Source of the DNA: Eledone cirrhosa
Taxonomy: Eukaryota
DNA length: 64,000 nucleotides
Direction of reading: 5' to 3'
Assembly: GCA_964016885.1 (NCBI GenBank)
Contig: OZ024750.1
Span: 50,158,001 to 50,222,000 of the forward strand
This document shows, piece after piece, positions 22,661 through 24,115 of the stretch; the first letter of the stretch is position 1, and each line of letters opens with the position of its first letter. The notes below the pieces were generated by a model. It had not been told where the DNA came from. It made no database searches and saw nothing but the letters and a program-made list of their open reading frames with translations. The translations under genes and the position numbers were made by a program.

Positions 22661-23205
22661 ATATATATATATATATATATATATATATATATATATATGT
22701 ATAATATAAGATCAAAAGATGGTTAAAGGAGTTCCATGTATTTTATTATGCGCATTTCAAAAACAAACATCATCATGCAATAATATTTGTGTTTTCATCA
22801 GATAAAACAGGAGAACATGATATGAAGGCTAAAAAACACTTGTGGATAGTGCAGTTTAAATCAACATATATGTAGGGTGCTTCTTATCCGATATCTGCAT
22901 TGCTTTATTGTACTACAATAAAACTCACCTCCTACATTATATATATATATATATATATATATATACATATATATATGTATACATACATATATGTATGTAT
23001 ATATATATATATATATATATATATATATATATATATATATATATATATATATATATATATATATATATATATATATATATATAAGGTTATAAGAGGCTTA
23101 GCTCTGTTTCTCGACCGTTATATCGCGTGACTATCTCCCCCTCCGCCTTTTGGGATTCTTTCTCACGTCGTGTAGACGCGTTCTTGAGACTAGTAAAATG
23201 AGGTA

Positions 23206-23293
23206 TCCTCTTGATAAGTCGGCAGACCTCGCAAGGACTCTATATCTTTGATATATTGTTTTTGTTTATGCCACGAAACTACGTAGTCGAGGA
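23206..23293 (+). ncRNA. Type I hammerhead ribozyme (U3-A8), family K copy 1
   Basis: TCCTC-TTGATAA-GTcGGCA..TGCCAC-GAAA-CTACGTAG-TC-GAGGA; GUC site, cut after 23288. Confidence 0.85.
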
Positions 23294-23796
23294 ATTTAGG
23301 AACAGTTTAGGTATGATACATTTTATTACTAATTATATCTAAATGTTTCTTCTCTCTTCATAATGTATTTTTAACTCTGATACTGGTTCAGTCTGGTTCA
23401 AACTGAATTGGTCTGTCCCAGTCATTCATTGAGCAACATCGGTGAAGTTGGCACCCTTAACTCACAGTTGGGTGCGGATGCATTCATGTATATATGTGTG
23501 TGTCCGCATGTATCTGTGTGTTTCTAAATGTATTAATAACTCCCTCTGGTCGAGCAATCTTTGAAGTGTGGGGACGGCTGGAAGGCTTCCATTACTCATG
23601 CTTCTCGCCTTCTTCACTACCTCTTCTACGGCCTCGATATGAATACCCCCTCCGCCTCCGTGGTATTTTTTTCGTGGTTATAAGAGGCTTAGCTCTGTTT
23701 CTCGACCGTTATATCGCGTGACTATCTCCCCCTCCGCCTTTTGGGATTCTTTCTCACGTCGTGTAGACGCGTTCTTGAGACTAGTAAAATGAGGTA

Positions 23797-23884
23797 TCCT
23801 CTTGATAAGTCGGCAGACCTCGCAAGGACTCTATATCTTTGATATATTGTTTTTGTTTATGCCACGAAACTACGTAGTCGAGGA
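23797..23884 (+). ncRNA. Type I hammerhead ribozyme (U3-A8), family K copy 2
   Basis: Identical to 23206-23293; cut after 23879. Confidence 0.85.
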
Positions 23885-24115
23885 ATTTAGGAACAGTTTA
23901 GGTATGATACATTTTATTACTAATTATATCTAAATGTTTCTTCTCTCTTCATAATATATATATATATATATATATATATATATATATATATATATATATA
24001 TATATATATATATATATATATATATATATATATATATATATATATATATATATATATATATATATATATATATATATATATATATATATATATATATATA
24101 TATATATATATATAA

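Follow-up and report, generated by a model that had tools for sequence, protein, structure and literature searches.

A non-coding hammerhead retrozyme of Eledone cirrhosa, probably copied into (TA)n from two fixed sites by a Penelope-type enzyme

A stretch of 64,000 nucleotides of the Eledone cirrhosa genome (the window) holds an insertion with two hammerhead-like motifs inside a (TA)n microsatellite. What this element is, and how it is copied into such a target, are the questions that the locus raises. The insertion contains an exact direct repeat of 280 bp at an offset of 591, as a sequence-only reading had claimed. That reading placed it in pure (TA)n, which is accurate for the flanks touching the element on both sides; farther out, the left tract has CA/TG interruptions (91% matches). 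Protein coding is absent: the longest non-microsatellite frame is 86 aa, stop to stop, in line with the claim of no credible ORF, and the insertion lacks the RT and GIY-YIG ORF of an autonomous EN+ Penelope-like element. The repeats lack LTR architecture, being parts of tandem units whose 5' ends vary. The window copy is a direct insertion of 1.47 units ending at site 1 (see below), with a variable 5' truncation and a fixed 3' end. The parts of the insertion, in window coordinates, are as follows.

22938-23083, no strand: (TA)n target tract on the 5' side
23085-23955, plus strand: retrozyme insertion, unit positions 388-591, 1-591 and 1-76 (position 1 = 23289)
23085-23364, plus strand: first copy of the direct repeat (280 bp), which is part of a tandem unit and not an LTR
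23676-23955, plus strand: direct repeat copy 2, identical to copy 1
23956-24114, no strand: (TA)n target tract on the 3' side

Both repeat copies carry the parts of a type I hammerhead, namely three helices, a U3-A8 pair and a GUC site, so the two hammerheads proposed earlier are present in full. The core is the U3-A8 variant, not CUGAUGA. Helix I pairs UCCUC (23206-10) with GAGGA (23289-93), and the core reads UUGAUAA (23211-17). Helix II is bulged (G-U-(C)-GGCA with UGCC-A-C), closes a 44-nt hairpin insert and is followed by GAAA. Helix III is the palindrome ACUACGUAGU at 23278-87. In natural hammerheads of the active type, C3-G8 is known to covary to U3-A8, as the accessible text of Perreault et al. 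(2011, PMC3088659) states. The retrozyme differs from the U3-A8 and dimeric hammerheads in the accessible parts of PMC3088659 and PMC7761336 in its bulged helix II with the 44-nt hairpin insert, and Rfam models miss it. An Rfam search gave no hammerhead at the gathering score and only 9 weak unrelated matches at E<=10.

23206-23293, plus strand: type I hammerhead motif 1, with U3-A8 core, extended helix II and palindromic helix III; predicted cut after 23288; conserved relative to sister family B
23797-23884, plus strand: second type I hammerhead motif, with a cut predicted after 23879
23289-23879, plus strand: 591-nt monomer, predicted circular RNA template
23289-23359, plus strand: predicted hairpin that would tie up the 3' strand of helix I, a likely off-switch (pair probability 0.9)

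The motif is well conserved. Helix I and the core are intact in 267/270 family copies. A sister family, B (about 595 bp, 81% identical), uses the same two sites. Its ribozyme differs at 1/43 positions, where A-U in helix I has become G-U, compared with 18% outside the ribozyme (p 0.002, from four B units). This conservation indicates that the ribozyme is under selection. Within family A, 3/95 array-wide variants fall in the ribozyme and are not significantly rarer there.

Folding was predicted for the motifs alone and in context. For the motif in isolation, the co-fold of lowest energy is a double hammerhead (-58.9 against 2 x -21.5 kcal/mol), bearing out the earlier claim that the palindrome favors a dimeric form; hammerhead dimers in the accessible text of PMC7761336 likewise have a 10-bp stem where helix III is palindromic. 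Within the 871-nt transcript, the two motifs are predicted to be linked by the 10-bp palindromic helix (p 0.97). The helix I strands are predicted to pair elsewhere in this transcript, helix I probability is near 0, and active folds lie 7-10 kcal/mol above the minimum. The copy had been called intact-looking; this description does not fit a helix I predicted to be sequestered in its own context, nor a copy that departs from its family at four A>G sites. Self-cleavage may be slow, co-transcriptional or protein-assisted, like that of the anole element. Only 1/9 predicted Xenopus retrozymes cleaved themselves in vitro in the accessible text of bioRxiv 10.64898/2026.07.22.740005. The circular form of the 591-nt monomer has a minimum free energy of -171.6 (z -6.6 against 40 shuffles), compared with -131.9 for the minus strand.

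A DNA search of the 3.0-Gb genome of the animal itself returned at least 196 matches from 40/696 candidates. Nearly all are 99% identical, which agrees with the recent insertion claimed earlier, and they lie in arrays spread over many chromosomes; a duplication at a single locus is not what was found. The window element almost certainly belongs to a known kind: it is a young member of a non-coding, non-LTR retrozyme family with a high copy number. The sequence-only reading had named it as such, and its tandem hammerhead units, lack of coding and dispersed multicopy family all agree. Its length, thought unusual in that reading, is ordinary: published animal retrozyme consensus lengths run from 51 to 972 bp in the accessible part of bioRxiv 10.64898/2026.07.22.740005.

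The 3' ends of the family are fixed. In the sense direction they fall at about +80 or about +245 after the cut, both at AAU(G/A)UAU joined to (AT)n. Exact junctions between element and (AT)n, with the unit numbered from 23289, number at least 2,421 for site 1 and at least 1,123 for site 2, both lower bounds; reversed-pattern controls gave 0. Contigs from a public run, which may not be independent of the assembly, have (AT)n loose ends at 23368 and 23533. The 5' ends are scattered along the unit, and no 5'-end peak marking a transcription start was found in the 47 direct arrays in which it was looked for. Multi-unit arms reach seven units, the longest arm being 4,255 bp. Microhomology alone was rejected as the basis of site choice because unit 202-215 offers longer (UA)-like stretches and yet no 3' ends fall there.

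23364-23368, plus strand: start site 1, unit 76-80, UGUAU; its counterpart in the second repeat is the 3' junction (23955) of the window insertion
23529-23533, plus strand: start site 2, unit 241-245, UGUAU; internal in the window copy and the 3' junction in other copies

At its 3' junction the window copy has lost its last G (G77), which is replaced by the A of the target TA. The same replacement occurs in 16 tallied family junctions; 69 keep the G. Such a replacement would be the expected leftover of primer pairing over UGUAU through a G-T wobble.

Many arrays are inverted, with both 3' ends facing outward, and these reveal a rule. Among the 40 best-scoring arrays, +80 was paired with +245 in 24/25 inverted ones; in the exception, one end lies at neither site. 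Outward-facing pairs within 10 kb were mixed in 27/27 cases among the first 100 listed junctions of each kind (C1). Independent site choice at the listed frequencies would give a mixed pair with a probability of about 0.44, or about 2e-10 overall (hand arithmetic). Reading of 127 arrays, some of them chosen as pairs (L126-L145, L071-73, L076), gave 73 mixed arrays including two local duplicates, 0 same-site arrays and four with one non-site end. Counted as distinct inverted arrays, 71/75 are mixed-site, 0 are same-site and 4 have one non-site end. In 18/75, both arms hold more than one unit and the outer ends are exact and of RT type. Fold-back self-priming was rejected as the source of inverted arrays, as either arm may be the longer and both end at fixed sites. 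Apparent 80/80 pairs were also rejected; the out-of-phase pattern had matched an internal stretch of family B. Read directly, family B follows the mixed rule in most loci, with one possible same-site exception (L070) and two irregular loci (L052, L060).

Which enzyme might leave such ends? The genome contains 10,595 GIY-YIG candidates, of which 150 were scored and 35 loci read. Among them is a young Penelope-like element (PLE) family, P1. Its unit is 4,979 bp, and its 938-aa frame encodes an RT, a CxxxxCxxC Zn-finger-like linker and a GIY-YIG domain at the C terminus. The linker and domain order fit the Neptune type, although Nematis has both too. Named homologues of the host's PLE protein include those of bivalve molluscs. 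P1 carries a U3-A8 hammerhead with a palindromic helix III and inserts into (TA)n. Its copies stop about +80 or +146 past the cut site (2,833 and 4,082 junctions), and its two sites are paired in 29/30 outward pairs. The sites of P1 and the retrozyme are alike in position and make-up, with a pyrimidine tract before site 1 and UUUCUAA before site 2. The retrozyme also has the marks of PLE-type insertion: fixed 3' ends, 5' truncation, an inverted copy with a tail at one end, and a microsatellite target, though to the eye (TA)n masks any target-site duplication. Because its footprint matches that of P1, a Penelope-type enzyme is implicated, and PLE-type mobilization of the retrozyme is very probable, with P1 as a candidate helper.

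No parent PLE emerged. In blastn of the retrozyme unit against the 35 GIY-YIG loci, no homology was found beyond a microsatellite-like patch, and P1 and three other GIY-YIG families show no alignable homology to the retrozyme. The insertion could instead be a pLTR that became detached from an ORF-bearing Penelope element, or a locally duplicated sequence in which a hammerhead-like motif occurs by chance. The missing Rfam score speaks for this, as does a parent search that covered only the scored candidates and loci given above. It is nonetheless largely refuted and very improbable. In none of the 127 arrays is a unit followed by other element sequence where the next unit would be expected, which also disposes of the pLTR that the sequence-only reading had named as its possible undoing. 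Copies are dispersed in their thousands, and the core and helices are conserved, down to the U3-A8 pair and the A-U to G-U change in helix I.

P1 and related elements are found in the window and beside retrozyme arrays. An inverted P1 copy lies at 28845-30801, with +82/+150 ends and part of the ORF, and further P1 ends lie at 20902-21971 and 55091-55301. Two loci of another PLE family, P2 (L101, L112), have a hammerhead-like motif with U3-A8 and with GCAA replacing GAAA; they end about +120 and +165 after the cut. In L039:2650-2705, L064:2635-2680, L053 and L081, retrozyme arrays sit in the (TA)n tail at a P1 end or next to arrays of family B; target tracts common to the retrozyme and P1 or family B are reused there.

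The window is rich in other elements. A third U3-A8 hammerhead family is represented on the minus strand at 16200-16700, with its hammerhead at 16407. It has 1,366 candidates, and its copies stop in (TA)n about +160 or +52 past the cut, with one inverted locus (L191) having one of each; in the search for a parent of the retrozyme it proved to be a separate element. A U3-A8 hammerhead-like motif at 20612-20650 (plus strand) lies in a repeat that ends in (TA)n and whose upstream part resembles 24400-24600. A second partial tandem element with a 96-bp repeat and a period of 588 occupies 21970-22660, ends in (TA)n and contains a CTGAAGA...GAAA...GTC motif at 22450-22484. Adjoining the right (TA)n tract at 24115-24400 is what by eye is a tRNA-like SINE, in which ARAGORN found no tRNA gene. 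A LINE-like element with two frames, an RT match and an endonuclease-like upstream frame, lies at 12310-14958 on the minus strand. Other fragments of PLE-like RT or GIY-YIG frames, two with weak Pfam matches, are at 60367-61987, 28044-28703, 9405-9950 and 36552-37172. A GC-rich 40-bp minisatellite of about 74 copies spans 57427-60397.

The nature of the RNA template was approached through variants within arrays. The counts cover 121 family-A arrays and 509 unit pieces; local duplicates (L074.1, L075.1), the nested A/B locus L053, the B piece L182.1 and arrays with B-assigned pieces were left out. At positions covered by at least three units, a variant was present in every unit in 105 cases, confined to one unit in 70 and shared by some units in 5. 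Nineteen of the all-unit variants (at least three units) are private to at most two arrays, private here meaning among 121 of at least 2,400 arrays.

On the ribozyme strand, A>G makes up 17/59 private array-wide changes against 10/146 single-unit changes (Fisher p 1.2e-4), the polarity of some A/G sites being uncertain. With ten old arrays left out, A>G exceeds T>C by 15 to 6, at base counts of 133 to 212 (p 0.002). ADAR disfavors a G 5' of the edited A. The changed A's are depleted in 5' G (3/39 sites against 28/133 A, p 0.018). A>G recurs on different backgrounds, with 7 parsimony steps at site 537 and 5 each at 340 and 395. L072 has seven A>G changes, each repeated throughout the 7-8 units of its two arms. 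In the window copy, four such changes lie within 25 nt, at positions where 121-122 other units of the subfamily keep A. An A-to-I origin of the A>G excess is likely.

23576-23600, plus strand: four A>G relative to the subfamily (23576, 23577, 23584, 23600), likely A-to-I edits copied into DNA

A single edited monomer copied repeatedly is the simplest reading, because RT errors would be confined to single units and a multimer would be edited unit by unit. That the template is a single monomer copied many times is quite likely. Unsampled parents carrying the variants could move the monomer step back one generation and would not remove it. Sharing of variants by exactly one unit in each of the opposite arms of L034 and L039 counts against a one-monomer template, because one monomer cannot give it. 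A dimeric circle was tried as template for L034 and does not fit the variants. The shared variants of these two loci are possibly the result of gene conversion between inverted arms.

Three other accounts of the arrays were weighed. The template might be uncut, linear, multi-unit read-through RNA, with a slow or protein-dependent ribozyme and no circle. For the anole PLE (PAc Poseidon) cleavage is not needed for insertion and unprocessed RNA is the main substrate, according to the accessible text of PMC11167929. The active fold is disfavored in the transcript context, and the L039 pattern fits one linear multimer. The pairing rule alone needs no circle, because P1, which is linear and without a circle-like unit, obeys the same rule. 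The variants tell against linear RNA of this kind: those in only some units are almost absent (5/180), the 19 nearly private ones fill at least three units, and the seven A>G are repeated in every L072 unit, where a multimer would have been edited unit by unit. The ribozyme is also strongly conserved relative to family B. Such a template is considered unlikely.

A cleaved linear monomer, on which the RT jumps from the 5' end to the 3' end without a covalent circle, accounts for the array-wide variants and the A>G marks no less well than a circle. R2 RT can make such a jump. Inner arm ends are somewhat enriched at unit positions 1-30 (22/150), part of which is a BLAST length artifact. RT jumps usually add or lose bases, and among the junctions with flanks matching the search motif the cut-site junction is exact in 284/286 cases and no indel occurs. 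In the accessible part of PMC7229834, circles are the form in which related retrozymes accumulate. We regard end-to-end jumping as improbable, and a covalent circle as the favored form of the template.

Short copies might instead insert and then undergo satellite-like expansion and homogenization at the DNA level, with A>G arising from transcription-coupled mutation asymmetry. Local tandem expansion is favored in the accessible text of bioRxiv 10.64898/2026.07.22.740005, and L034 and L039 suggest some gene conversion. Against DNA-level expansion, the inverted arrays with more than one unit in both arms have exact RT-type outer ends and at least 99% identity to dispersed copies, partial homogenization is nearly absent, and A>G is clustered, recurrent and avoids 5'-G. 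This account is quite improbable. The earlier claim of copying around a circle stands for the family in so far as copying around a monomer is supported; the 1.47-unit copy by itself shows no circle. A 621-nt closed-cycle contig (591+30) in one of four runs was rejected as evidence of a circle, since tandem DNA gives the same.

The best explanation, to which we give a probability of about two in three, is that a hammerhead-cut 591-nt unit, probably circular, is copied into (TA)n by a Penelope-type enzyme from two fixed sites. Read-through transcription would provide an RNA in which two hammerheads pair through the 10-bp palindrome and then cut. The monomer would be ligated, and hairpins hiding helix I would leave a stable circle. 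ADAR would edit some molecules. A GIY-YIG/RT protein, probably dimeric, would cleave both (TA)n strands, and the two DNA 3' ends would prime on UGUAU/UAUAU at +80 and +245, where the ends are observed, through 3-5 bp of pairing. Each RT would roll around the same monomer up to seven times, as the array anatomy suggests. Two cDNAs joined at their far ends would give inverted arrays, and use of one end would give direct arrays. Within this explanation the window copy is best seen as a one-ended site-1 product. More tentatively, and with somewhat less than even chances, a dimeric Penelope-type RT/endonuclease holds one covalent circle at two asymmetric sites with both rolling at once, edits appear in every unit, ADAR is a main heritable mutagen of the family, and two-site priming explains inverted one-tailed Penelope copies generally.

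The element was compared with known systems from the accessible texts of the papers cited. Like the metazoan non-LTR retrozymes (Cervera and de la Pena 2020, PMC7229834; Li, Clavereau and Pollet, bioRxiv 10.64898/2026.07.22.740005), it consists of dispersed, highly structured, tandem non-coding units within the 51-972 bp range, with one type I hammerhead each, and a PLE has been proposed as their helper. Fixed internal 3' ends, two-armed inverted arrays, (TA)n targeting and editing marks are absent from those texts in so far as they are accessible. In contrast to most metazoan circles described there, the window retrozyme has a ribozyme predicted to be blocked by self-pairing. A TE match exists for 24/57 families of Xenopus retrozymes, whereas a homologous pLTR was not found for the window retrozyme among the 35 GIY-YIG loci.

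EN+ Penelope-like elements (Craig et al. 2021, PMC8557442; Arkhipova et al. 2013, PMC3846280) share 5' truncation, partial tandems, microsatellite targets and inverted 5'-truncated copies; inverted PLE copies with a tail at one end are known from both papers. Their tails measure 30-40, that of P1 about 66 and that of the ORF-less retrozyme 165 nt. Self-priming on an antisense template has been proposed for their inverted copies, whereas the retrozyme has fixed outer start sites and either arm may be the longer. The anole PLE protein cuts and extends both strands in vitro, starting at two internal sites (Frangieh et al. 2024, PMC11167929). The retrozyme is probably like PAc Poseidon in these respects, with two RT starts downstream of the hammerhead, AT-rich targets and a predicted dimer. 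The PAc Poseidon start sites are without target homology or strand preference in the accessible text, whereas those of the retrozyme match (AT)n over 3-5 nt and are never the same in one insertion.

Obligate two-site pairing shared with an autonomous PLE, and strand-biased array-wide A>G, found no account in searches of the open-access literature, supplements aside. The return of retrozymes to the genome is in the papers cited only proposed, with a PLE helper and a circular template, and the accessible text of PMC8557442 describes the origin of inverted, one-tailed Penelope copies as unresolved. With thousands of readable insertions, defined start sites and a co-resident candidate enzyme of the same footprint, a single reaction in vitro could test both questions. 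Should the A>G marks be edits, RNA editing would become heritable sequence change by way of circular RNA.
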